DNA of 64,000 nt from Deltaproteobacteria bacterium (GTDB lineage Bacteria > Desulfobacterota > GWC2-55-46 > DRQE01): assembly GCA_015492245.1 (NCBI GenBank), contig WGFM01000006.1, positions 13,418 through 77,417 of the forward strand, given 5' to 3'. A program made the position numbers and the translations under genes. The notes below the pieces were generated by a model. That model was not told the DNA's origin, did not search any database, and was given only the letters and a program-made list of their open reading frames with translations. Numbering within the stretch: position 1 is the first letter of the stretch; the number at the start of each line of letters is the position of its first letter. Below are positions 7,321-48,214 of this stretch, piece by piece.

Positions 7321-8006
7321 TTCTTCTCAAACTTCTTCCTAATATCCTCTTTCCAGTCTCTGTGCTTGTTCATTATTCTGAGCACCTCAAGGGGATCGTC
7401 TGTAACCTTTATTATATTGAGCTCTTCCCTGTCTATGGTACCATATTTTAGCATAGTATTTTCCATGAAGTCGAGTATAGGTGCCCAGTACTCTATACCG
7501 AACAGTATGAGAGGGAATGGATATATCTTGTGTGTCTGTATGAGTGTCAGTGCCTCGAAGAACTCATCGAGGGTTCCGAACCCACCTGGCATACACACAT
7601 ATCCCATGGCATATTTTACGAACATCACCTTTCTTGCAAAGAAGTATCTGAAGTGGAGGGATCTGTTCTGGTAGGGATTTGGTTTCTGTTCTTTTGGCAG
7701 TGTTATGTTGAGTCCGACAGATAGCCCTCCACCGAGCATGGCACCCCTGTTTGCGGCCTCCATGAGGCCAGGGCCTCCACCTGTTATGATCGTATAGCCA
7801 TTTTCTGCAAGTATTTTTGCAACCTCAACGGTCTTCCTGTAGAACTTGTTCCTTGGCTTGAACCTTGCAGAACCAAATATGCTCACCGCTGGTCCTATGT
7901 CTGCAAGCTCTTCGAAGCCTTCTACGAACTCACTCAGTATACGAAAGAGCCGCCATGTTTCTTTCCCCTTAAGGTCATCTATGGTTGCCATTCCATCTAC
8001 TCCCAC
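7317..8006 (-). CDS. LOG family protein (cytokinin riboside 5'-monophosphate phosphoribohydrolase-like / nucleotide nucleosidase)
   Basis: Has the GGGPGLMEA and PGGFGTLDE motifs characteristic of the LOG/TIGR00730 family. Confidence 0.8.
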
Positions 8007-9547
8007 TCTATGGTGCTTGGTGGTTTTGAGCTTATGTCGTATACCACCCTGTTGATGCCTCTTGCCTCGTTTATAACCCTTGATGATATGCGCTCGAGCA
8101 CATCATACGGCACCCTTGTCCAGTCTGCGGTCATGCCATCCACACTGTCGACTATCCTTACGGCAAGGGTATTCTCGTAGGTTCTCTCATCTCCCATAAC
8201 ACCCACTGTCTTTACAGGAAGGAGCACCGCAAATGCCTGCCACACCTTTCCATAAAGGCCTGCCTTCTTTATCTCCTCGAGCACTATTGCATCTGCCTTG
8301 CGCAGTATGGCGCACTTTCTTGGGGTAACCTCTCCGATTATCCTTATGGCAAGCCCAGGGCCTGGGAAGGGATGCCTCTCTACAAGCTCTGCTGGAAGGC
8401 CAAGTTCTCTACCAAGCACCCTCACCTCGTCCTTGAACAGCTCCCTCAGTGGTTCCACAAGCTCAAGACACATCCTCTTTAGAAGTCCTCCCACATTGTG
8501 GTGGCTCTTTATGGTGGCAGAGGGTCCCTTGTGGGACACACTCTCTATCACATCGGGATAGAGGGTGCCCTGTGCAAGGAACTTGACCCTCTTTATCTTT
8601 CGTGCCTCCTCTTCGAACACCCTTATGAACTCGTTGCCTATGAGCTTGCGTTTTCTCTCGGGGTCTACGACACCCCGGAGTTTTTCGAAGAACCTCTTTC
8701 TGGCGTTTATCCTCTTTATTCGCATGTGGAAGTTCTCTCTCAGTGTTGAGTATACCTTCTCTGGCTCACCCTTTCTCAGAACCCCGTTATCCACGAATAT
8801 GCAGGTAAGCCTGTCTCCCACCGCCCTGTGCACAAGGGCGGCGGTAACCGCAGAGTCCACCCCACCACTTATTCCACATACCACCCTGTGGCCATCCACC
8901 TGCTCTCTTATCCCTTCCACCGCATTCTCTATGAAAGAGCCCATGGTCCACAGTGGCCTGCAGCCACATATCCTGAAAAGAAAGTTCTTCAGTATCTTCT
9001 TACCCTTCGGGGTATGCACCACCTCTGGATGAAACTGCACACCAAAGAACCTTCTTTTTTTATCCTTCATGGCCCCTATTACACCCCTTTCGGTATGTGC
9101 AATGGCCGTAAATCCAGCTGGAAGCCTCTCAACCCCATCGCCATGGCTCATCCACACCTTTATGGGTTCATCCCTGAACCCACTGAAGAGGTCTTCTGTG
9201 TCTTCTATGGTGAGATAGGCCGGGCCGTACTCTCGCCTCTCACTTCTTTCCACCTTTCCGCCAAAGAGCCTTGCCGTAAACTGCATGCCGTAGCATATAC
9301 CGAGCACAGGTATGCCGAGATCAAAGAGTACCTTTGAGACCTTCGGGGCACCCCTATCGTGCACACTCGATGGCCCGCCTGAAAGGATTATCCCCTTTGG
9401 ATTAAACCTTTTTATAGCAGACAGTGGTTTGTTGTATGGGTGTATCTCGCAGTATACATGGGCCTCCCTCACCCTTCTTGCTATGAGCTGGGTATACTGG
9501 GAGCCGAAGTCAAGTATAAGTATTCTGTGCCGGTGTATGTCCTTCAT
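7997..9547 (-). CDS. guaA: GMP synthase (glutamine-hydrolysing)
   Basis: 516 aa. N-terminal class I glutamine amidotransferase ([17 protein letters not shown]), a central ATP-PPase with the SGGVDS P-loop, and a C-terminal dimerisation domain ending ..IEWE. Confidence 0.95.
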
Positions 9548-9548
9548 C

Positions 9549-11012
<1,464 letters not shown>

Positions 11013-11972
11013 TTAACCCACACCCCCTTTTCTGTAATATTCTTTTTTCAATGCATCTATTATTATCCCTTCCAGAAGCCCCGCATCGCTTACCTTCATG
11101 GTATAGATGCCAAAGGCCTCCATGCAGGCAAGCACTATGGCTGTGCCCGGGATTATAAGGTCCTCCCTGCCCTTCTCAAGGGAGAGTATCTTATTTCTCT
11201 CCGAGAGTCTCATGCTGGAAAGCCTCTTGTATATATCCTCAACACCCTCATGGGTCAGGATATGGTTGTTTATCCTTTCTGGCTGGTAGACCTCGAGGCC
11301 CTGGGCTATACTTGCAAGTGTGGTTACAGTGCCAGCGGTGCCACAGAGCTCACACCTTTCGGCCGAAAAAAAACCTGAAAGGGCCTCCTTCACCCCCTGC
11401 ACAAACCCCTCTACTTTCTTCTCCAGCCCTTCAAGCTCCTCCCTATCCGGTGGGTCAGACCTCATGAACCCTTCTGTAAGGTGCACCACCCCCATATTCT
11501 CGATACTGATCGATTTCAGTATCCTCTTTTTTCTACAGTATACAAACTCTGTGCTTCCCCCGCCTATATCCACCACAAGGATGTCCTCTTTCTCGCTGGA
11601 TACAACAGAGAGCACCCCCTCTACCGAAAGATGGGCCTCCTCTGTGCCATCTATCACCCTTGCATCTATACCTGTCTCTTCTTTGACCCTTCCAAGGAAT
11701 GCCTCCCTGTTCTTTGCCCTCCTTACCACACTCGTTGCAACCGAGAGTATTTGGTCTGCACCATTTCTGTCTGCGATGGCTTTGAACTCCTTGAGGGCTA
11801 CGATGGTTCTTGTGATGGCATCCTCTGTGAGCCCTTCCTTTTCTGTAAACCCGCCACCGAGCCTTGTTATCCTGCGGCCACGGGCGACATCCTTTGTTCT
11901 TCCTTCATGGTCCACCTCTGCAACCAGCAGCCTCAATGTATTGGAGCCTATGTCTATGGAGGCAAGCCTCAC
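11013..11972 (-). CDS. Ppx/GppA family exopolyphosphatase / guanosine pentaphosphate phosphohydrolase
   Basis: It has the [21 protein letters not shown]-terminal actin-like ATPase motif. The likely start is a GTG preceded by GGAGAAGAAAAG, overlapping the TGA of the upstream gene (GTGA). The longer ORF-track start is probably spurious. Confidence 0.75.
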
Positions 11973-12484
11973 CTTTTCTTCTCCATATAGTCCTTTGCGT
12001 ATTCCACATAGTTTCCTGCAGAGCGCACTATTCTCTCCACCTCTTCGTCCTCGAGCCTTCTTACAACCCTTGCAGGAACTCCAAGTGCAAGGCTTCTGGG
12101 AGGAATCCTTGCACCCTCTGTTACTATGGCACCTGCCCCTATTATGGAGCACTCGCCTATATGGGCATTATCGAGCACAATGGCACCCATGCCCACAAGT
12201 ATCCTGTCCTCAAGGGTGCATCCGTGGAGTATCACGCCATGGCCTATGGTAACCTCACTGCCTACTATGAGTGGGTATATCTCTTTGGTTACATGGAGGG
12301 TGGAGTTGTCCTGCACATTGGTCTTCTCGCCTATCCTTATGTAGTTTACATCCCCCCTTATCACCACATTGAACCACACACTGGAAAAGTCTCCAACCCT
12401 TACATCACCTACAACCCTTGCACTCTCTTCTATGAAGACAGATTCTCCGAGCTCCGGGTATACCCCTCTGTATGGAAATATCAT
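11969..12484 (-). CDS. Gamma-class carbonic anhydrase family / hexapeptide-repeat protein (YrdA/PaaY-like)
   Basis: 171 aa with left-handed beta-helix hexapeptide repeats (VGDVRVGDFSSVWFNVVIRGDVNYIRIGEKTNVQDNSTLHV) and conserved His residues. Confidence 0.8.
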   Translation of the reverse strand: MIFPYRGVYPELGESVFIEESARVVGDVRVGDFSSVWFNVVIRGDVNYIRIGEKTNVQDNSTLHVTKEIYPLIVGSEVTIGHGVILHGCTLEDRILVGMGAIVLDNAHIGECSIIGAGAIVTEGARIPPRSLALGVPARVVRRLEDEEVERIVRSAGNYVEYAKDYMEKKR

Positions 12485-12641
12485 AAGGTGGCCTCCCTTG
12501 AAAGAAACCCATTAAACTATTAAAATTTATCAGAATAGCCACTTTTATGCAACGAGATTATGGAACAGGCGAGAAGGCACGGAATATATAATATGGGTGA
12601 AATCCGGCTTAAATAAAAACAACAGTTGACCCCCACAGAGT

Positions 12642-14027
12642 TTATGGCCTGTCCTCCCTGAGGAGTTCTATCCTCAACACCTTTCTTGTATCGTCCCTTA
12701 CCCTGAACTCCTCGGACTGCCTCATACCTGCAACCCAGATTATCCTTCCATCTGCCACAACAACGGGTATCCTTCTTCTCTCCTCAAGGGGGAGCTTCTC
12801 GTCTATGAAGAGCTCCTTAAGCTTCTTTGTGCCATCCATACCAAGTGGATGGATTCTGTCGCCTGGCCTGAAGGTTCTTACCACAAGGTGGCTGGGAAGA
12901 TGTTCATGATCGAAGTATGCCACATTCCTTCCTTCATTCAGCCTTTCGGGCCTTGCCACAACCTCTGTTTTGAGCAGATAGCCTGTCCCCTCGATGGTTG
13001 TAACCCCTGGCACCTTCAGCATGGTCTCCTCGGGCACCGGTGTTCCTGATGGCCTGCCCATTGAAACTACAATCTCACCATACACCCTTTTAAGATATAG
13101 CCCTCCGCCGAGTGATACAGTAAGGTTGGGTCTTTCTGTCCTGAGTGCCCATAGAAACTCTTCTACCTGTGGTGTCTCCATAAGGTCTCTTCTGTGGCAG
13201 AGTGTCTCCACCGCCTTCAGAAAGAGCCTTGCAAGAAGGGCCTCGTCCACACAGAGAAGCTCTCTCCTTCTAAAGCGCACCTCCTCTTTGTTAACTGTTG
13301 CAAGCCTTTCGAAAAGCTCTGTGGCCTGGCCTTCCATATAGTGGGCATCCCTTCTGAGAAGTCCTGAAATCCTCGAGAGGGTCTCCACTATAGAGGGGTT
13401 GTAGTGTGCCTTGAGATAAGGCAGGAGCTCAAGCCTTATCCTGTTTCTAAGGTATCTTGTCGAACGATTCGTTGAGTCCTCCACATACTCTATGGAGTGG
13501 CCTCTTGCGAACTCCTCTATCTCCTCTCTACGCACCTCTATGAGGGGTCTTACAAATGGACCTCTTACAGGCTCGATACCCTTGAGCCCCTCAAGGGATG
13601 TCCCCCTTATAAGCCTCATAAGGATTGTCTCTGCGTTGTCGTCCATGTTGTGTCCCAGGGCCATTCTGTGGAGTGCGTGTTTCTTGATGGTCTCATGGAA
13701 GAACCCGAGCCTTTCCCCTCTTGCCCAGCTCTGGGTTGATACACCAGGGGGCATTGTTCCCTGCCTGAGGGTTCTGGATACAAGCTTAAGTCCCAGCCTT
13801 TCTGCCACCCTCTTTACAAAGTGGGCATCCCGCAGGGATTCCTCACCCCTCAGGTTGTGGTTAAGGTGGCATACTGTAAGCTCAAGCCCCCACCTTCTGG
13901 CAAGTTCTGTGAGTATGTGCAGAACCACCATGGAGTCCACCCCACCCGAGACTGCCACACCAACCCTCTGGCCTGCAGATAGCATGGCGTATCTCTCAAT
14001 CGTCTTTTCAACCTTTTCAAGAAGCAT
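12642..14027 (-). CDS. tilS: tRNA(Ile)-lysidine synthetase
   Basis: PP-loop SGGVDSMVVLHIL and a C-terminal TilS domain. The likely start is the internal Met (MLLEKVEK..) rather than the long ORF-track start. Confidence 0.8.
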   Translation of the reverse strand: MLLEKVEKTIERYAMLSAGQRVGVAVSGGVDSMVVLHILTELARRWGLELTVCHLNHNLRGEESLRDAHFVKRVAERLGLKLVSRTLRQGTMPPGVSTQSWARGERLGFFHETIKKHALHRMALGHNMDDNAETILMRLIRGTSLEGLKGIEPVRGPFVRPLIEVRREEIEEFARGHSIEYVEDSTNRSTRYLRNRIRLELLPYLKAHYNPSIVETLSRISGLLRRDAHYMEGQATELFERLATVNKEEVRFRRRELLCVDEALLARLFLKAVETLCHRRDLMETPQVEEFLWALRTERPNLTVSLGGGLYLKRVYGEIVVSMGRPSGTPVPEETMLKVPGVTTIEGTGYLLKTEVVARPERLNEGRNVAYFDHEHLPSHLVVRTFRPGDRIHPLGMDGTKKLKELFIDEKLPLEERRRIPVVVADGRIIWVAGMRQSEEFRVRDDTRKVLRIELLREDRP

Positions 14028-41234: not shown

Positions 41235-41993
41235 ATGACCACCATCAGTATAACGGAGACCGTAGAGGTAATATCCAACATAGCCATATCCCCGGGTTAC
41301 CACAGGATAACCCTGGGCTGGACCCCCCTTGAGGTAAGGCCTGGCCAGTTCGTGATGCTCAAGACAAGCCCCACCATGGACCCACTTCTCAGAAGACCCT
41401 TTGCCATATACAACATCCATGACGATGGGACGGAGATACTCTACAGGGTGGTTGGTAGAGGCACCGCCCTTCTGTCCAGACTCAAAAGAGGAGACAGGCT
41501 TGATGTGCTCGGCCCCCTTGGCAAGGGGTTCGAGCTACCAGAGGACAGGGAGACCATCATGGTTGCAGGTGGTATGGGCATCGTGCCATTCTACATGGTG
41601 GCAAAGGAACTCCTTAAGATGGGCAAGACCACGCAGCTCATCTACGGTGTACGAAGGGAAGAAGAGTTGATACTTGCAGATGATATAATAGGGCTCGGCA
41701 CAGAGGCACACCTTGTGGTAGAGGAAAGGGACAACATGCTGCCCACAGACATACTGGAAGAGATGACCATAGGCGACAGAAGAGTGCTTGCATGTGGGCC
41801 AGGGGGGATGCTCAAGAAGGTGGCCTCCCTGTGTGAGGCCAGGGGTGCAGAGTGTATGGTATCTGTCGAGACCAGCATGGCCTGTGGCATGGGTGTGTGC
41901 ATGGGATGTGCAGTGAAGACCACAGATGGATACAGGATGGTATGTGCCGATGGGCCTGTCTTCGATGCGAAGGAGCTTGGATGGAAGGGCTGA
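41235..41993 (+). CDS. pyrK: Dihydroorotate dehydrogenase electron transfer subunit
   Basis: FAD/NAD-binding FNR-like fold and a C-terminal 2Fe-2S Cys cluster (CGMGVCMGCAVK). Confidence 0.9.
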   Translation: MTTISITETVEVISNIAISPGYHRITLGWTPLEVRPGQFVMLKTSPTMDPLLRRPFAIYNIHDDGTEILYRVVGRGTALLSRLKRGDRLDVLGPLGKGFELPEDRETIMVAGGMGIVPFYMVAKELLKMGKTTQLIYGVRREEELILADDIIGLGTEAHLVVEERDNMLPTDILEEMTIGDRRVLACGPGGMLKKVASLCEARGAECMVSVETSMACGMGVCMGCAVKTTDGYRMVCADGPVFDAKELGWKG

Positions 41994-42910
41994 ACACCAC
42001 GGTCCAGATAGCAGGGGGGTTCGTGCTCAAGAACCCGGTGATGGTCGCCTCGGGCACCTTTGGTTACGGGCTTGAGTTCGCAGGGCTCATGGACATCTCC
42101 CTGCTCGGGGCTGTCGTTGTAAAGGGGCTCAGCCTCAGGCCCAGGGAGGGAAACCCTCCACCCCGTATCATCGAGACCCCCGCAGGTCTCATAAACGCCA
42201 TAGGGTTACAGAACATAGGGGTGGAACGCTTCCTGAAGGACAAACTCCCAGAGATTAAAAGGCTCGGTGCCACCGTTGTGGCGAACATCTTTGGCGAGTC
42301 CATAGATGAATACAGTGAGGTTGCCCGCCTGCTCAGCGGGGCAGAGGGCGTAAGTGCCATAGAGATAAACATATCCTGCCCGAATGTGAAAAAGGGGGGG
42401 CTCAGGTTCGGTCAGGACCCTGCCTCTGCCAGAGAGGTGGTGGAGGCCGTAAGAAAATCCACAGAGCTACCGATTATAACCAAGCTCTCTCCGGATGCAC
42501 CTGATCTCAAGGCGATGGTAGAGGCGGTGGAGTCTGCAGGCACGGATGCCATATCCCTCATAAACACCATACCTGCCATGGCCATAGATGTGGAAAGAAG
42601 GCGCCCCGTCTTATCGACCATGACAGGGGGACTATCAGGGCCTGCCATAAAGCCCATAGCCTTGAGGCTTGTGTGGCAGGTTGCAGGATTCGCGAAGGTG
42701 CCTGTAATAGGCATGGGCGGGATAATGACAGGCCGTGATGCCCTTGAGTTCATAATTGCAGGGGCCTGCGCCATTCAGGTGGGAACCCTCAACCTCGTAG
42801 AGCCAGATGGTGCACTCAGGGTGATAAGGGAGATGGAGGCCTACATGCACAAGAAGGGCATCAGAAGTATCGGAGAGCTTACTGGCTCGCTTGTCCTGCC
42901 AGAGAGATGA
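41981..42910 (+). CDS. pyrD: Dihydroorotate dehydrogenase catalytic subunit (class 1B)
   Basis: LKNPVMVASGTFGYG start and FMN-binding motifs. It overlaps the pyrK stop. Confidence 0.9.
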   Translation: MEGLNTTVQIAGGFVLKNPVMVASGTFGYGLEFAGLMDISLLGAVVVKGLSLRPREGNPPPRIIETPAGLINAIGLQNIGVERFLKDKLPEIKRLGATVVANIFGESIDEYSEVARLLSGAEGVSAIEINISCPNVKKGGLRFGQDPASAREVVEAVRKSTELPIITKLSPDAPDLKAMVEAVESAGTDAISLINTIPAMAIDVERRRPVLSTMTGGLSGPAIKPIALRLVWQVAGFAKVPVIGMGGIMTGRDALEFIIAGACAIQVGTLNLVEPDGALRVIREMEAYMHKKGIRSIGELTGSLVLPER

Positions 42911-43952
42911 CGCTTATCTTTCCGGCCACCTTCTTTGCAATCTCCATGAACGCCTTTGCCTGTGGAGAGTCTGGAAGGCCCTCCACAACCGGAATCCCCT
43001 TATCGCCACCTTCTCTTATGGATGGGTCTATCGGTATTGTGCCCAGAAGTTCCACGCCGTATCTTTCGGCCGTCTTTTCTCCTCCGCCGTGGCTGAATAT
43101 CTCTGTCTTCTCGCCACAGTGGAGACATACGAAACAGCTCATGTTTTCCACTATACCCAGTATGGGCACATTCACCTCTTTGAACATCCTTATGGCACGC
43201 CTTGCATCTATGAGGGCCACATCCTGCGGGGTGGTTACAACGACTGAACCTGTAAGTGGTATCGTCTGCACAAGGGTCAGCTGTGCATCACCTGTGCCTG
43301 GTGGAAGGTCTATAACGAGGTAGTCCAGCTCTCCCCATGCCACACCCTTGAGGAACTGCTGGACCAGCTGCATCACAAGGGGGCCTCTCCATATAAGTGG
43401 TGTCTCTTCATCGAGCATGAACCCCACGCTCATGAGCTTTACCTCATGGCTCTCCACGGGGATGAGCTTTTTATCCTCTGTGGTGTGCACCTCCTTGTGG
43501 ACACCCATCATCATGGGCACACTTGGCCCGTAGAGGTCTGTATCGAGAAGACCCACCTTCGCCCCTGTCTTTGCAAGAGACAGTGCGAGGTTTACCGAAA
43601 CGGTGGATTTTCCAACCCCACCCTTTCCACTTGCCACTGCTATGGTATTCTTTACCCCTTCTATGGGCTCTTTCTGTGGCACCCTCTTCGCCTTCGGCAC
43701 CTCTGAGGACACATCCACCGTAACCTCCTCCACCCCTGGCAGGGCCTCAACGGCCTTTCTTGCGCCCTCTTCGAGCTCCTTTTTGAGCGGACATGCAGGG
43801 GTTGTGAGCACAAGGCTGAACCTTACTTTACCGCCATCTATCCTTATGTTTCTTATCATGTTAAGCGTTACAAGATCCTTGCCCAGCTCAGGGTCCATAA
43901 CCTTCTTGAGTGCATCGAGCACCTGGGACTGTGTAACAGCAGGTCTTTCCAT
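42879..43952 (-). CDS. apbC: Mrp/NBP35 (ApbC) family Fe-S cluster carrier ATPase with N-terminal DUF59/MIP18 domain
   Basis: VASGKGGVGKST Walker A and the CxxC motif (CFVCLHC). It overlaps the convergent pyrD 3' end by about 30 nt. Confidence 0.9.
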   Translation of the reverse strand: MERPAVTQSQVLDALKKVMDPELGKDLVTLNMIRNIRIDGGKVRFSLVLTTPACPLKKELEEGARKAVEALPGVEEVTVDVSSEVPKAKRVPQKEPIEGVKNTIAVASGKGGVGKSTVSVNLALSLAKTGAKVGLLDTDLYGPSVPMMMGVHKEVHTTEDKKLIPVESHEVKLMSVGFMLDEETPLIWRGPLVMQLVQQFLKGVAWGELDYLVIDLPPGTGDAQLTLVQTIPLTGSVVVTTPQDVALIDARRAIRMFKEVNVPILGIVENMSCFVCLHCGEKTEIFSHGGGEKTAERYGVELLGTIPIDPSIREGGDKGIPVVEGLPDSPQAKAFMEIAKKVAGKISVISLAGQASQ

Positions 43953-43956
43953 CTTT

Positions 43957-44634
43957 CTATTCTCCTTTGGTCTTTAGCCATCTATCCTCGCAAAGTGTGT
44001 CTCCCTTTACAAGGCTCTTTGTCTTCACATGTTTTATGCCATCTATTGCATCACAGAAGCCATCCACCCATCTTGATAGATACTCGCACATGAGTCTTTC
44101 GTCAACATGTACATTCTGCCAGTATCTTCGATGCAGGCACCTTCTGTGTCTTTCTATGAATTCTCTGTTTGGCCTCTGCTCGATCTCTATTACATCATCA
44201 GAGGGCATACCATCGAGGAAGAAGTTTCTCAATATGGTATAGACCCTCTCTGGCAGGGGGTTACTAATCTCGTATTCTTCAGTTGCTTTTCTTCCTTTTG
44301 TTCTGCCGTGCCGGTATGCCACCTTCAGAACAAACTTTTCTGCCCTGTTGCCGAATTCTTCTATAAGGGCCTTTATTATGGCCGCCTCCCTGGTCTCCAC
44401 CCGTTCCACCGAATCTACAAGGAACTCCTGTACAGGCATGTTTGCCACCAGTCTTTCCAGAGGTTCATCAAGGTATCTGCCGTATTTTCTGGCCATCTCA
44501 GCCACCACACCGGTAGCCCTGTTGCCAAACCTCTCTGTGAATTCTCTGCGCAAGAACCTTTCCCTCTCTTCCACTATGAGTATCTTTCCAAACAGCCACT
44601 GATGAACAGGCCCCAGAAAAAGACTCATCGGCAA
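43957..44634 (-). CDS. Hypothetical Cys-rich protein (four C-terminal Cys, C-x16-C-x10-C-x20-C)
   Basis: 225 aa. No confident family assignment. It ends 4 nt before apbC. Confidence 0.35.
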   Translation of the reverse strand: MPMSLFLGPVHQWLFGKILIVEERERFLRREFTERFGNRATGVVAEMARKYGRYLDEPLERLVANMPVQEFLVDSVERVETREAAIIKALIEEFGNRAEKFVLKVAYRHGRTKGRKATEEYEISNPLPERVYTILRNFFLDGMPSDDVIEIEQRPNREFIERHRRCLHRRYWQNVHVDERLMCEYLSRWVDGFCDAIDGIKHVKTKSLVKGDTLCEDRWLKTKGE

Positions 44635-44702: not shown

Positions 44703-44909
44703 TCAAGATATCTCTTCTGATGCAACCCTGTTGAGTTCTTCTAAGAGTTCCTCGAGGGGGGCCCCGTCTCTACGGGCTGCCTCTTCGAGGGTTGCCATGC
44801 CTCCACAGCACGAATCTATGTTGAACCTGGTAAACACCCCTATGGTTTTAGGATGGTCCCTTATCACATCGTTGACTATCCTGTCTTTGGTTATCTTTGC
44901 AACCTTCAT
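44703..44909 (-). CDS. DUF1858 (hybrid-cluster-protein-associated redox disulfide domain) protein
   Basis: 68 aa. IGVFTRFNIDSCCGGMATLEEAA matches the DUF1858 pattern. Confidence 0.55.
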   Translation of the reverse strand: MKVAKITKDRIVNDVIRDHPKTIGVFTRFNIDSCCGGMATLEEAARRDGAPLEELLEELNRVASEEIS

Positions 44910-45124
44910 TGTGCCTCTTCACTCTCCTCTGCCACTTCGTTCAGTTCTTTGAGTATCTCCTCCACATCCACCCCGTGCATCGTTGCACCAAAGGCTATGT
45001 CTTCTGTTTTTGCTCCCGGGCATGTAAAACATCCTGCCCCGAAGTACTTCATAAATACCTTCTCTGTTGCAGGATATTTTTCGAGCACCTCACCTATGCT
45101 CATCTCTTTTGTTATCTTCGACAT
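44906..45124 (-). CDS. DUF1858 family protein with CxxC (CFTCPG)
   Basis: 72 aa. IGEVLEKYPATEKVFMKYFGAGCFTCPG..MHGVDVEEILKELN is typical of DUF1858. It overlaps its paralog by 4 nt. Confidence 0.55.
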   Translation of the reverse strand: MSKITKEMSIGEVLEKYPATEKVFMKYFGAGCFTCPGAKTEDIAFGATMHGVDVEEILKELNEVAEESEEAQ

Positions 45125-45147: not shown

Positions 45148-45561
45148 TTATTGCGGTTTTCTGAAGGCCGGTGCTGGTTTTATGGTCATGAACATGTTCA
45201 ACACAAACAACACGACAGACACCCCCTCGATGAGTGCGAACACATGAAGCACCGTTATTCCTCCATTACCTGTTCCCATTATAATCCAGCCCAGCGCCAT
45301 GCCTACAAGGCCTATGTTCGCCGTCCATAGCTGAACCATTGCGAGCCTGTCGCTCCACAGCGGTGTTCCGCTGAACCTTGGCAGTATATGGTAGCCCACA
45401 CCATATATCATCATGCTCATCCATCCAAGCAGATTGAAGTGTGTATGTATGGGCCTCATGGGATACACCGGGCCAGAGATGGTCATGTATATACCCATCA
45501 ACATGGCTATCACAAAGTATACCATTGCACATTTTATGAACCATACCGTAACCTTGCTCAT
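45148..45561 (-). CDS. Four-TM membrane protein with conserved His motifs (H-T-H, G-Y-H)
   Basis: 137 aa. HTHFNLLGWMSMMIYGVGYHILPRFSG. Confidence 0.4.
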   Translation of the reverse strand: MSKVTVWFIKCAMVYFVIAMLMGIYMTISGPVYPMRPIHTHFNLLGWMSMMIYGVGYHILPRFSGTPLWSDRLAMVQLWTANIGLVGMALGWIIMGTGNGGITVLHVFALIEGVSVVLFVLNMFMTIKPAPAFRKPQ

Positions 45562-45582: not shown

Positions 45583-45774
45583 TTATTTTGCTCCTTCTGC
45601 CTTTTCGGGCATGGGCATACAGGCTTCCACCGGACATACCTCTGCACAGGCACCACACTCGGTACATAGAGAAGGGTCTATCCTGTATGGACTACCCTCT
45701 GTTATGGCACCTTCGGGACACTCGTTCATACAGGCACCACACTCGATGCAGTTATCCAGAATATAGTAAGCCAT
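45583..45774 (-). CDS. 2[4Fe-4S] ferredoxin
   Basis: Two CxxCxxCxxxCP motifs (CIECGACMNECP, CTECGACAEVCP). A strong AAGGAGGG RBS. Confidence 0.85.
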   Translation of the reverse strand: MAYYILDNCIECGACMNECPEGAITEGSPYRIDPSLCTECGACAEVCPVEACMPMPEKAEGAK

Positions 45775-45831: not shown

Positions 45832-46059
45832 TTATACAGAGAGGACCTCTTTTATCTCAGGCACCCTCTCCTTTATCGCCCTTTCAACGCCCATAACCAG
45901 TGTTATCTGGGCACTGGGACAACCTGCACAGGCCCCCTGAAGCTGAACCTTTACGATACCATTCTCCTCGTCCACATCCACAAGGCTCACATCGCCTCCA
46001 TCCGCCTGGAGCGCAGGACGAATACTGTTAAGTGCCTCTTCTACCCTCTCTCTCAACAT
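45832..46059 (-). CDS. NifU-like (Nfu-type) Fe-S cluster scaffold domain protein
   Basis: 75 aa. GGDVSLVDV..GACAGCPSA motif of NifU C-terminal domains. Confidence 0.8.
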   Translation of the reverse strand: MLRERVEEALNSIRPALQADGGDVSLVDVDEENGIVKVQLQGACAGCPSAQITLVMGVERAIKERVPEIKEVLSV

Positions 46060-46288
46060 ATTGTATGTACCTCCTTGTTTATTACAAAAGTGTTCGATTA
46101 TTATAACAAATTATATCTCCCTTTCAACCACTAAAAAATGATACATGTCAAAATTCGAAAGATTTTCCGTCCCAACCCTGTGGCAGACAGTCTTCCCTTG
46201 CATATGTACTTCATTATTTTTTGTGGTAAATACAGGGTATTATGTGCTATCATCTGGAATTATTCCTTTGTAAAAGGAGGAATTTTCC

Positions 46289-47647
46289 GTGGCAACTCTC
46301 GATTCTTCAAAGAGGCTTGCCTATGGCTGGCTCGCCTATGCGGTGGGTTCATTGATATTTGCGGGCATATTCGCCCTTATGGTTGCACTGGCAAGGACAC
46401 CCTACATAAAGGACATGCTGCCGGGGGGGGATTACTTCTACATAGCCCTTGTGGGGCATGTCATACTTGCGGTGGTCATATGGTTTCTTGCCTTCGAGGG
46501 GTTTTTGTGGCTACTTACCTCTGCCATGGATACATCCACCCCTGTGATAAGCCCTCTTGTTGGCTGGTTCTCGCTTGTGCTTTCGGCAGGGGGGACAACC
46601 CTCATAGTAATATGCGCACTTTTGGGGCTTGGCTATCCAGAGCTTGCAAACTATGTGCCTGTCATAATCCATCCACTGTTTTTCACAGGGCTTTCTCTGT
46701 TTACAGCAGGCATTATACTTATCCTTTTGAATACCTTTCTCACCCTTGGGAGCGCACTCGGAAGGGGTGCATCATTTCCCATCGTAACCCGTGGTATGGC
46801 CGTGGCAGCGGTTACCGTTACAGTCGCCCTCGTCTGTTTTTTCCTTGCAGGTTACCTGCAGTATACTCGCAAGGGGTTCTTCGACTTCGAAAGGTTCTTC
46901 TGGGGTGGTGGGCACATACTGCAGTTTGCAAATACCATGGCGATGGTCGTCAGCTGGCTCTATCTGGTAAAGATAGTCTTTAGAAAAGATGCCATAGGAT
47001 TGAGGCTGGGCACCGGGGCCTTTCTGTTCTATCTTGTCTTTGTGCTACCCGCACCGGTTATATACTTCCTGTACGATACAGCCTCATACGAATACAAGAC
47101 CGCCTTCACCATGCTCATGCAATGGGGCATAGGGCCTCCAACGGCATTCTTCCTAATAGCCATACTGTATCTTCTCTACCGATACAGGAACAAGGGGCTG
47201 CCCTGGGCAAGGCCGGGGTTTTCTTCCCTTGTGCTCTCGGTCGCCATATTCCTTCTTGGCGGGCTTATAGCACTGGATATAAGCGGGGTGAACACCAAGA
47301 TTCCAGCGCACTACCACTGTGCAATAGGGGCTGTAACAATAGCATTCATGGGGCTTTTCTACGAGGTGGTTCCCTTCTTCGGGCTTCGTATATACAGTGA
47401 GAAGATGGCCCGCATCCAGCCCTACCTCTACGGGCTGGGTATACTGCTATTTGCCATGGGACTCTACATAGCAGGCTGGTATGGTGCCATGCGAAAGGTC
47501 TATGGACAGGACCAGGCCTTCGAAAGCGTGGGAGAACTCGTGGGAATGGGTATAATGGGGGTGGGCGGGCTCGTTGCCATAGCAGGTGGAATATACTTCG
47601 TCCTGAATGCACTGCTCACATTCCTTGGGGGCAGAAGGAATACTTGA
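46289..47647 (+). CDS. 12-TM membrane protein with heme-copper-oxidase subunit I-like His motifs (incomplete ligand set)
   Basis: GTG start with AAGGAGG 8 nt upstream. Motifs VGHVIL (helix II-like His), FWGGGHIL (W..GH as in HCO helix VI) and HYHCAIGAVTIAFMGLFY (compare COX1 helix X H-x-H..GAV..MGGF). No adjacent H-H pair is present. Confidence 0.45.
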   Translation: MATLDSSKRLAYGWLAYAVGSLIFAGIFALMVALARTPYIKDMLPGGDYFYIALVGHVILAVVIWFLAFEGFLWLLTSAMDTSTPVISPLVGWFSLVLSAGGTTLIVICALLGLGYPELANYVPVIIHPLFFTGLSLFTAGIILILLNTFLTLGSALGRGASFPIVTRGMAVAAVTVTVALVCFFLAGYLQYTRKGFFDFERFFWGGGHILQFANTMAMVVSWLYLVKIVFRKDAIGLRLGTGAFLFYLVFVLPAPVIYFLYDTASYEYKTAFTMLMQWGIGPPTAFFLIAILYLLYRYRNKGLPWARPGFSSLVLSVAIFLLGGLIALDISGVNTKIPAHYHCAIGAVTIAFMGLFYEVVPFFGLRIYSEKMARIQPYLYGLGILLFAMGLYIAGWYGAMRKVYGQDQAFESVGELVGMGIMGVGGLVAIAGGIYFVLNALLTFLGGRRNT

Positions 47648-47659
47648 CAATTTTAATAG

Positions 47660-47679
47660 GGTATATTAAATTATATACC
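47660..47679. promoter_or_regulatory. Palindromic operator candidate GGTATAT-TAAATT-ATATACC upstream of the rrf2/iscR-like gene
   Basis: A perfect 7-bp inverted repeat with a 6-bp AT spacer, about 45 nt upstream of the Rrf2 ATG. A TTGACA lies at 47644..47649. Confidence 0.4.
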
Positions 47680-47725
47680 ATATCTTCCTGCTGTGGTGGC
47701 TCAGAAAAGGGGAAAGAACCATACC

Positions 47726-48214
47726 ATGAGGCTTACAACAAGAGGTCAATATGCCGTAAGGGCCATGGTGAACCTTGCCGCTCATCCGGATGGCAAGCCT
47801 GTGGCATTGAGGGATATATCGACTGAAGAGGGCATATCCCTCGCCTACCTGGAGCAACTGTTTGTCAAGCTCAGAAGGGGCAAGATGGTAAGAAGCGTGC
47901 GTGGGCCAGGCGGTGGATATGTGCTTGCAAAGAACCCCGCATCGATCAGTGTGGGAGAGGTAATATCTGTTGTGGAAGAACCGCTAAACCCGGTTGCCTG
48001 TCTCGATGAGGACTCCAAGGGCTGCGAGAGGGCAGAAAACTGCATAACACAGAAGGTATGGAAGGGCCTTGGTGAGAGGATAAAAGAGTTTCTCGGCTCG
48101 ATAACACTGAAGGACCTTGTGGAGGAACTCCACTCCATAAAAGACAGAGAGGATTCCCACAGGTGCGATATGAATAAACCCAGAGGAGGTAGTCTTGAAA
48201 AGAGTATACTTTGA
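47726..48214 (+). CDS. iscR: Rrf2 family transcriptional regulator (IscR-like)
   Basis: MRLTTRGQYAVRAM winged-helix N-terminus, a Cys ligand (CLDEDSKGC) and a position directly before iscS. Confidence 0.8.
   Translation: MRLTTRGQYAVRAMVNLAAHPDGKPVALRDISTEEGISLAYLEQLFVKLRRGKMVRSVRGPGGGYVLAKNPASISVGEVISVVEEPLNPVACLDEDSKGCERAENCITQKVWKGLGERIKEFLGSITLKDLVEELHSIKDREDSHRCDMNKPRGGSLEKSIL

Follow-up and report, generated by a model that had tools for sequence, protein, structure and literature searches.

The window analysed here is a 64,000-nucleotide stretch of contig WGFM01000006.1 from a Deltaproteobacteria bacterium. On its forward strand it encodes a protein, named here HCO12, which is a true full-length homologue of heme-copper oxidase (HCO) subunit I with a complete 12-helix fold. 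Judged from its sequence, HCO12 keeps both heme sites of these enzymes, a bis-His low-spin site (H57 and H343) and a high-spin site with a proximal His (H341). The His-His pair of helix VII is replaced by Ile-Tyr and the cross-link Tyr is gone, so a canonical tri-His CuB/FeB binuclear centre cannot be formed. HCO12 appears to represent a large undescribed clade of the HCO superfamily, paralogous to B-family-derived enzymes that resemble nitric oxide reductases (NORs) and lack the same Tyr.

The open reading frame (ORF) encodes 452 amino acids and starts at a GTG. Its coordinates, this start and a strong ribosome-binding site had been put forward in the original prediction, and all were confirmed in the sequence. 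The Shine-Dalgarno motif lies 8 nt before the GTG, and in the alignment the predicted N-terminus is in line with those of the homologues.

46289..47647, plus strand: HCO12, HCO subunit-I homologue without the CuB ligands, 452 amino acids (ORF, PF00115, AlphaFold2, Foldseek and substitution rates)
46274..46280, plus strand: Shine-Dalgarno motif AAGGAGG (sequence)

The ratio of nonsynonymous to synonymous substitution rates (dN/dS) against the nearest relative, which is 86% identical, is 0.12, indicating purifying selection. Together with the family-wide invariance described below, this led to the rejection of a pseudogene or a decaying gene.

The Pfam COX1 profile (PF00115) matches HCO12 over profile positions 3-429 of 436, with 86.2 bits (gathering score 34.8) and E = 2.9e-24. 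The AlphaFold2 model, based on an alignment with 34 homologues, has a pLDDT of 88.4 and a pTM of 0.90, and its 12 long helices agree with the 12 transmembrane segments first proposed. A Foldseek search of the PDB with this model retrieved HCO catalytic subunits only. The best match is subunit I of the Thermus ba3 oxidase (template modeling (TM) score 0.82, 18-20% identity), and scores of 0.69-0.78 were obtained for A-family, cbb3 and cNOR enzymes, with 0.69 for cNOR 4xyd. Searching the PDB sequences with HCO12 and with the family profile (E <= 0.01) gave no HCO, which places HCO12 remote from every solved enzyme. The homology to solved HCOs was established through the Pfam profile, through the structural comparison and through a paralogue that bridges the distance, a B-type subunit I encoded beside HCO12 in some genomes and called here the companion. 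The profiles of the two families align with a probability of 100% (hhalign, E = 3e-53, 28% identity, 450 columns), ungapped through helix VII. The resemblance to HCO subunit I that had first drawn attention to this ORF is therefore highly significant. The alternative of an NnrS-like protein was not upheld: PF05940 gave no match even at E <= 1, and PF02628 (COX15-CtaA) did not match either. No NCBIfam equivalog fitted HCO12; the scan gave no match to ccoN (TIGR00780), and the cbb3-related NF011053 scored 19 bits versus a cut-off of 1080.

Conservation was assessed in 190 non-redundant relatives with 35-90% identity to HCO12, and in a second set of 145 diverse representatives of 50%-identity clusters. 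HCO12 has five His residues (57, 128, 209, 341 and 343), none of them forming an HH dipeptide. H57, H209, H341 and H343 are kept in 190/190 relatives, as are W205, Q212, Y342, R402 and K403; H128 is variable. The invariant core of the 145 representatives is made of H57, W205, G208, H209, Q212, H341-Y-H343 and R402-K403. The three motifs quoted in the original prediction are present and had been correctly assigned, VGH57VILAV to helix II, FWGGGH209IL to helix VI and H341-Y-H343CAIGAVTIAFMGLFY to helix X, and the His residues they contain are thus conserved throughout the homologues. The codons of these elements are located as follows:

46457..46459, plus strand: H57, helix II axial ligand of the low-spin heme (190/190 and 145/145; block aligned with companion H68)
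46901..46933, plus strand: helix VI distal motif W205-GGG-H209-IL-Q212-F213-A-N215 (alignments to CyoB and to the companion)
47060..47065, plus strand: I258-Y259, standing where the His-His pair of helix VII has been lost (aligned by hhalign without gaps to companion H279-H280)
47309..47317, plus strand: H341-Y342-H343 of helix X, H341 being the high-spin and H343 the low-spin heme ligand (invariant; aligned to CyoB H419/H421)
47492..47497, plus strand: R402-K403, counterpart of the heme-propionate Arg pair (190/190; aligned to companion R447-R448)

The helix VII His-His pair is present in 0/190 relatives and, at the aligned columns, in 1/145 representatives (P0159). Its absence, already suspected from the single sequence, is by this comparison a family trait and not a sequencing accident, and its position could be refined to I258-Y259. 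An alignment to CyoB of E. coli places H209 on H284, F213 on the cross-link residue Y288 and H341/H343 on H419/H421, and put the His-His pair ambiguously near Y262/D263. A gNOR-like replacement of His by Asp (D263), drawn from this alignment, was rejected because the stronger, ungapped profile alignment to the companion puts I258/Y259 at the pair. The latter (hhalign) gives these equivalences:

H209, companion H230: helix VI CuB/FeB ligand, the sole one retained
Q212, companion Q233: distal residue common to both
F213, companion Q234: site of the cross-link Tyr (ba3 Y237 position)
N215, companion N236: distal residue common to both
I258, companion H279: lost helix VII ligand (ba3 H282)
Y259, companion H280: lost helix VII ligand (ba3 H283)
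D263, companion D284: ordinary B-family Asp ('HHxxxDP' motif), not a substitute ligand
H341/H343, companion H384/H386: helix X heme ligands
R402-K403, companion R447-R448: heme propionate pair

I258 and Y259 lie 49 and 50 residues past H209, which is the canonical HCO spacing and agrees with this register. Position 258 is occupied by I/L/V/F in the family, and position 259 by Y/F. P0159, a divergent member of the clade, carries His-His at exactly the helix VII columns ('PFHHLL') and also has the HYH and RK motifs peculiar to the clade. The register is supported by this, as is the view that the pair was lost secondarily, and P0159 may represent an evolutionary intermediate. D263 is an Asp in 51/145 representatives only, and no substitute ligand is conserved across the wider clade. 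The cross-link Tyr of the A and B families has no counterpart, as F213 stands at that position. Y259 occupies a former His position. The Pfam match, the fold prediction, the profile alignment and the conservation among homologues all favour the original idea of a protein that could bind heme without a canonical binuclear centre.

A hidden Markov model search of 1.84 billion cluster representatives gave 675 matches at E <= 1e-30, 1,216 at E <= 1e-10 and 1,725 at E <= 1e-3. That the count rises only to 1,725 indicates that the profile marks a sizeable clade of its own and misses the bulk of the canonical HCOs; the weaker matches probably include the paralogous companion family. In the source annotations, relatives of HCO12 are called 'cbb3-type cytochrome c oxidase subunit I' or are unnamed. 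The gene context was studied in a non-redundant set of 84 loci, drawn from reference genomes and assemblies. Their hosts, nearly all uncultivated and from groundwater or sediment, are Thermodesulfobacteriota ('Deltaproteobacteria'), Nitrospirota, Nitrospinota, NC10, SAR324 and some Pseudomonadota.

The latest HCO survey recognizes 12 families (PMC11214002). Its gNOR has an Asp for one active-site His and a cupredoxin subunit II without CuA, exemplified by Damo_1118-1119 of Ca. M. oxyfera (PMC11214002). The HCO12 family, set apart by the published family descriptions, seems to fit none of the 12. A putative N2O-reductase family, which sits in the cNOR branch, was considered and rejected as well. 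Literature searches found no description of the HCO12 family, nor of the 137-aa module described below.

Unbiased clustering of the neighbours showed heme O synthase to be the commonest, near HCO12 in 43/84 loci and usually immediately downstream (TIGR01473, 271 bits versus a cut-off of 210). This order resembles that of cyoABCDE in E. coli. Other recurrent neighbours are Mrp/ApbC (28/84), a cytochrome b-FlpD fusion with a NuoF-like protein (24/84), Nfu (23/84), SCO1/SenC (23/84), a 137-aa COX1-like protein (22/84) and a monoheme cytochrome c with a signal peptide and one CxxCH (18/84). Neither ccoO nor ccoP was found in any of the 84 loci.

Two main arrangements can be distinguished. In type A, to which the window belongs, HCO12, heme O synthase and cytochrome c are encoded opposite a divergent operon of Nfu, ferredoxin, a small HCO protein, DUF1858, ScdA_N and Mrp. 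A ~1,400-aa BcrAD_BadFG/DUF2229 protein, which looks like a double activator-ATPase fusion, consistently follows the cytochrome c gene of type A loci (18 loci; L005:11221-15429) and is absent from the window. In type B, a single operon encodes a CuA subunit II (~180 aa), the companion subunit I (~504 aa), HCO12, the heme O synthase CtaB and SCO1. The genes for subunits II and I immediately precede that for HCO12 in 13 loci (L049 at 7644-13355, L037, L041, L047, L048, L053, L054, L063, L064, L072, L073, L076 and L080). An A-family oxidase takes the upstream place in two others, the order in L018 being COX3, CoxB, CtaD, SCO1, HCO12, CtaB. Elsewhere, HCO12 adjoins SCO1, a rhodanese, a CbbQ-like ATPase or cytochrome b/NuoF-like modules. 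In Nitrospirota-type loci (L003:1910-7376), two ~700-aa fusions of di-heme cytochrome b, ferredoxin-like and MvhD/FlpD domains surround a NuoF-like flavoprotein just upstream of HCO12, which looks like a self-contained membrane electron-input module tied to NAD(P)H.

The companion matches ba3 with E = 5e-37 and shows GH-SSQQ-IN in helix VI, E-H-H…D-P in helix VII and H-F-H in helix X, with a Gln at the position of the cross-link Tyr. The ba3 match, the full ligand set and the Gln in place of Tyr identify it as a B-family-derived enzyme of the NOR type; with at least 7,967 matches, its family is a very large one. The subunit II of the related loci has the full CuA motif and belongs with this companion. 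In the window, the ORF list and Pfam reveal no cupredoxin gene adjoining HCO12.

Several metagenomic cluster representatives carry the HCO12 domain in an apparent fusion. The partner is a C-terminal UbiA/heme O synthase in P0121, SCO1 in P0254, a CcmH/CycH-like TPR domain in P0143 and P0258, and an N-terminal di-heme cytochrome b in P0131.

In the window, HCO12 is transcribed divergently from an Fe-S (Nfu/ferredoxin/Mrp) operon, as first noted, and is followed by a gene for an IscR-like regulator:

46060..46288: AT-rich divergent intergenic region between the Nfu gene and HCO12
45832..46059, minus strand: Nfu-type Fe-S carrier, at the head of the divergent operon (PF01106, 103 bits; position kept in at least 23 loci)
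45583..45774, minus strand: 2x[4Fe-4S] ferredoxin (NF058577, 76 bits; conserved neighbour)
45148..45561, minus strand: 137-aa module with four transmembrane helices, HCO helices IX-XII (PF00115, 46.8 bits)
44906..45124, minus strand: small DUF1858 protein with invariant C32-x-x-C35-P-G (PF08984, TIGR03980)
44703..44909, minus strand: small ScdA_N protein, like the N-terminal domain of RIC, with invariant C34-C35-G-G (PF04405, 56.7 bits)
43957..44634, minus strand: 225-aa protein between ScdA_N and Mrp (4 related loci only)
42879..43952, minus strand: Mrp/ApbC ATPase that carries Fe-S clusters, at the far end of the divergent operon (NF008669, 368 bits, above cut-off; 28 loci)
47693..48214, plus strand: Rrf2/IscR-like regulator directly downstream of HCO12 (PF02082, 140 bits; TIGR02010, 162 bits, below cut-off)

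A minus-strand promoter-like site, TTGAAA-16-TATAAT at 46127-46100, is strong but is a consensus match only. A second one, TTGACA-17-TAAATT at 47644-47672, overlaps the end of the HCO12 gene ahead of the IscR-like gene. The family models align to the IscR-like ORF from residue 12 (MRLTTRGQY…), and its true start is therefore probably an ATG ~33 nt downstream of the GTG at 47693. NifS, a NifU-type scaffold, MnmA and MtaB follow this gene. The closest relative of the window, L007, likewise has the IscR-like regulator next to HCO12 and lacks heme O synthase and cytochrome c; it ends partway into a NifS-like gene.

The DUF1858 stop and the ScdA_N start overlap by 4 nt (44906-44909). These two tandem small cytoplasmic Cys proteins (44703-45124, minus strand) are kept as a pair beside the small HCO module in ~30 loci. 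The 225-aa protein has no Pfam or NCBIfam match; its dN/dS of ~0.13 indicates that the ORF is a real gene. Beyond the Mrp end of the divergent operon lies PyrD (41852-42910, plus strand), itself preceded by an ORF at 41235-41993. As a PyrK-like protein (DHODB_Fe-S_bind) and PyrD occupy the same position in loci of Methylomirabilis and other metagenome-assembled genomes (L002, L005), the synteny reaches beyond the HCO cluster. The remaining genes of the window are housekeeping genes, and a mobile-element context was rejected on this ground.

For the 137-aa protein of the divergent operon, at least 1,054 homologues were found, with lengths of 133-146 aa throughout. H39, H41 and H58 are invariant in them, H39 and H41 corresponding to the H-x-H heme ligands of helix X. 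Its family profile aligns to helices IX-XII of the HCO12 family, with H39/H41 on H341/H343 (hhalign, probability 94.9%, E = 4e-8); the alignment to the canonical companion is less good (63%). The AlphaFold2 model has four helices, and its top fold matches are subunit I of cbb3, ba3 and NOR. In L022, a tblastn search with the 137-aa protein matches inside the HCO12 gene itself (~993 nt, helices IX-XII), which independently confirms the internal paralogy. With a dN/dS of 0.08, the small protein is even more conserved than HCO12. On these grounds, the HCO12 lineage has given rise to a stand-alone module that amounts to one third of an HCO and may have a bearing on how the pseudo-threefold HCO fold arose.

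Concerning function, we tentatively favour, at somewhat less than even chances, a redox enzyme that works with heme alone on NO or a similar oxidant, the substrate being suggested by association only. HCO12 would bind heme b and heme o, the latter pair being proposed because heme O synthase is the commonest neighbour. It would perform heme-centred redox chemistry on a small oxidant in a remodelled distal pocket (His/Gln/Tyr), and receive its electrons from a periplasmic monoheme cytochrome c or from a membrane cytochrome b. The likeliest substrate would be NO or a related N- or O-oxide, with HCO12 as a detoxifying or low-yield respiratory reductase. In the lineage of the window, HCO12 would be co-regulated with the divergent operon, whose Fe-S carriers and small RIC-like Cys proteins would rebuild the clusters damaged by the same oxidant.

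The strict invariance of H209, Q212 and W205 in at least 145 representatives, together with the low dN/dS, points to chemistry at the high-spin heme rather than to a decaying copy. The recurring cytochrome c (18 loci) and cytochrome b-FlpD (24 loci), as well as the fusion to cytochrome b in P0131, suggest redox partners and support an enzymatic role. Three observations provide the link to NO. The nearest paralogue is a CuA-containing B enzyme of the NOR type with Gln for Tyr, which has the H-x-x-Q-x-x-N of helix VI in common with HCO12. ScdA_N and DUF1858, named for Fe-S repair by RIC and for association with the hybrid cluster protein, are encoded in the divergent operon. Finally, the hosts include Methylomirabilis, Nitrospirota and Nitrospinota.

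Several points weigh against such an enzyme. To our knowledge, a binuclear centre is needed in all characterised HCO catalysis. According to a study on cNOR, FeB is essential in that enzyme (PMC12067857), and in the family survey the three active-site His are universal apart from gNOR (PMC11214002). The presence of SCO1 and CbbQ in loci without a CuA protein hints that a metal site has gone unrecognised. In the 64 kb of the window, heme O synthase, cytochrome c and SCO1 are all missing. The fusions to heme O synthase, SCO1 and the CcmH-like TPR domain, and the place of the HCO12 gene between SCO1 and CtaB in oxidase operons, point instead to biogenesis.

A role in biogenesis is the main rival, which we consider rather unlikely. 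HCO12 would then be a non-catalytic subunit-I paralogue that holds heme o/a, and perhaps a metal, for nascent HCO or NOR subunits, as a scaffold or chaperone by analogy with NifEN for nitrogenase or Surf1 for oxidases; the 137-aa module might be a second heme-holding adaptor. The loss of catalytic ligands with retention of cofactor ligands is typical of scaffold paralogues. The fusions and the operon place inside an assembly block (13 loci; L018) fit this idea, as do the CbbQ/NorQ-like AAA+ neighbour, a HemN/HemW-like radical-SAM protein in L076 and, in the window, the surrounding of HCO12 by Fe-S biogenesis genes only. However, in the majority of loci, the window among them, no client HCO is encoded within ±7-10 kb, and an invariant distal pocket would be needless for a passive carrier. 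The dedicated cytochrome c and b partners suggest electron flow, and the fusions, each known from a single metagenomic cluster representative, could be merged adjacent genes.

It is improbable that HCO12 modifies heme as an alternative, possibly O2-independent heme A/As synthase, oxidising or otherwise tailoring heme O as the substrate at the 'high-spin' site, with the bis-His heme b as a relay and electrons passing to cytochrome c or b. A fuller version, in which an O2-independent HCO12 receives heme O from the neighbouring or fused heme O synthase and has the 137-aa module as its heme-shuttling partner, has an equally small chance. Heme O synthase adjoins HCO12 in about half of the loci and is apparently fused to it in P0121. 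CtaA contains one bis-His heme and a second His-ligated heme site, which is paralleled by the one bis-His and one mono-His site of HCO12. Canonical CtaA/COX15 was found on one contig only among the 84 loci, and the NOR-like companion operons carry HCO12 where many eNOR operons carry CtaA. The eNOR enzymes contain heme As, and many of their operons encode the O2-dependent CtaA (PMC11214002). On the other hand, the case for this reading is drawn from gene context, HCO12 has no sequence or fold relation to CtaA, and no CtaB is near it in the window. The single CtaA-bearing contig (L058) carries HCO12 as well, and in the other genomes CtaA could lie elsewhere.

More doubtful still is a non-catalytic accessory subunit of the adjoining B-type NOR-like or A-type oxidase, for instance a di-heme electron-entry or stabilising subunit. 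This would account for the place of the gene right after those of subunits II and I in 13 B-type and two A-type loci, but HCO12 is missing beside most members of the large companion family and stands alone in the majority of its own loci. No paralogous accessory subunit with 12 transmembrane helices occurs among the solved HCOs matched.

That HCO12 is a divergent member of a named family is scarcely credible: the 'cbb3-type' source labels, the invariant Asp263 near helix VII and the occurrence of the family in Methylomirabilis, a reported gNOR carrier, speak for it, but the ccoN and NnrS profiles are unmatched, NF011053 stays at 19 bits, and gNOR keeps two His plus the Asp and has a cupredoxin subunit II, whereas HCO12 has lost two His, has no adjacent subunit II and carries at D263 merely the Asp usual for the B family, which varies across the wider clade, so that cbb3 CcoN, NnrS and gNOR were all rejected as its identity.

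The three active-site His have been treated as a defining constant of the HCO superfamily, from which gNOR departs at one position only (PMC11214002). In the HCO12 family, hundreds of 50%-identity clusters under purifying selection keep the ligands of both hemes and have discarded two His and the Tyr. The oxidase scaffold has thus been re-used for something other than binuclear O2/NO chemistry. The 'cbb3-type' label wrongly credits anaerobic groundwater Thermodesulfobacteriota, Nitrospirota, Nitrospinota and NC10 with a high-affinity oxidase, and can distort metabolic reconstructions. A catalytic HCO12 would define a heme-only mechanism for HCOs, whereas a role in biogenesis or heme modification would bear on the maturation of heme-o/a enzymes in anaerobes. 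The one-third module, if correctly interpreted, is a living example of a possible ancestral four-helix unit and opens the origin of the pseudo-threefold fold to experiment. The size of the family, its paralogy to the Tyr-less B-type enzymes, the linkage to heme O synthase, SCO1 and cytochromes, and the one-third paralogue in the divergent operon all go beyond what had been noticed originally.

Among the known systems, CtaA/COX15 resembles HCO12 in its gene neighbourhood, beside or fused to heme O synthase, and ctaA-ctaB adjacency is a known arrangement. The two are not homologous and have different folds, and any analogy would be functional. The cNOR (NorB and NorC) is comparable in the way it may work only: a subunit with 12 transmembrane helices is combined with a monoheme cytochrome c and no cupredoxin, and a NorQ-like AAA+ protein is encoded near some HCO12 loci. 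In contrast, NorB has three His and a Glu on FeB and NorC is anchored in the membrane, whereas the cytochrome c of the HCO12 loci is soluble with a signal peptide; the fold match to cNOR is also weaker (4xyd).

The gNOR (PMC11214002) has a replaced active-site His, is related to the B family and occurs in uncultivated organisms and those of sulfidic habitats, including Methylomirabilis, in all of which it is similar to HCO12. It differs by exchanging a single His for Asp, by its CuA-less cupredoxin subunit II and by its quinol-site residues. HCO12, in comparison, has two His gone, no substitute ligand conserved across its clade and no adjacent subunit II.

Structurally, the closest known enzyme is subunit I of the Thermus thermophilus ba3 oxidase, a B-family O2 reductase (3s8f, 1ehk). 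The positions of the heme ligands and of the propionate pair appear to be conserved between the two, as deduced through the companion alignment. The ba3 oxidase has H233, H282, H283 and Y237 for CuB and the cross-link, and only the equivalent of H233 is kept in HCO12.

The companion, a NOR-like B-type enzyme of the eNOR/sNOR type (e.g., L049:8203-9717), is a clear paralogue of HCO12. It differs in having E-H-H in helix VII, H-F-H in helix X and a CuA subunit II, whereas HCO12 has I-Y and H-Y-H at these places, no subunit II, and is ~50 residues shorter. The two agree in their fold of 12 transmembrane helices, in the heme ligands and the Arg/Lys pair for the propionates, in the Asp that follows helix VII and in the H-x-x-Q-x-x-N of helix VI; both lack the cross-link Tyr, and both are found in a common operon with heme O synthase and SCO1.

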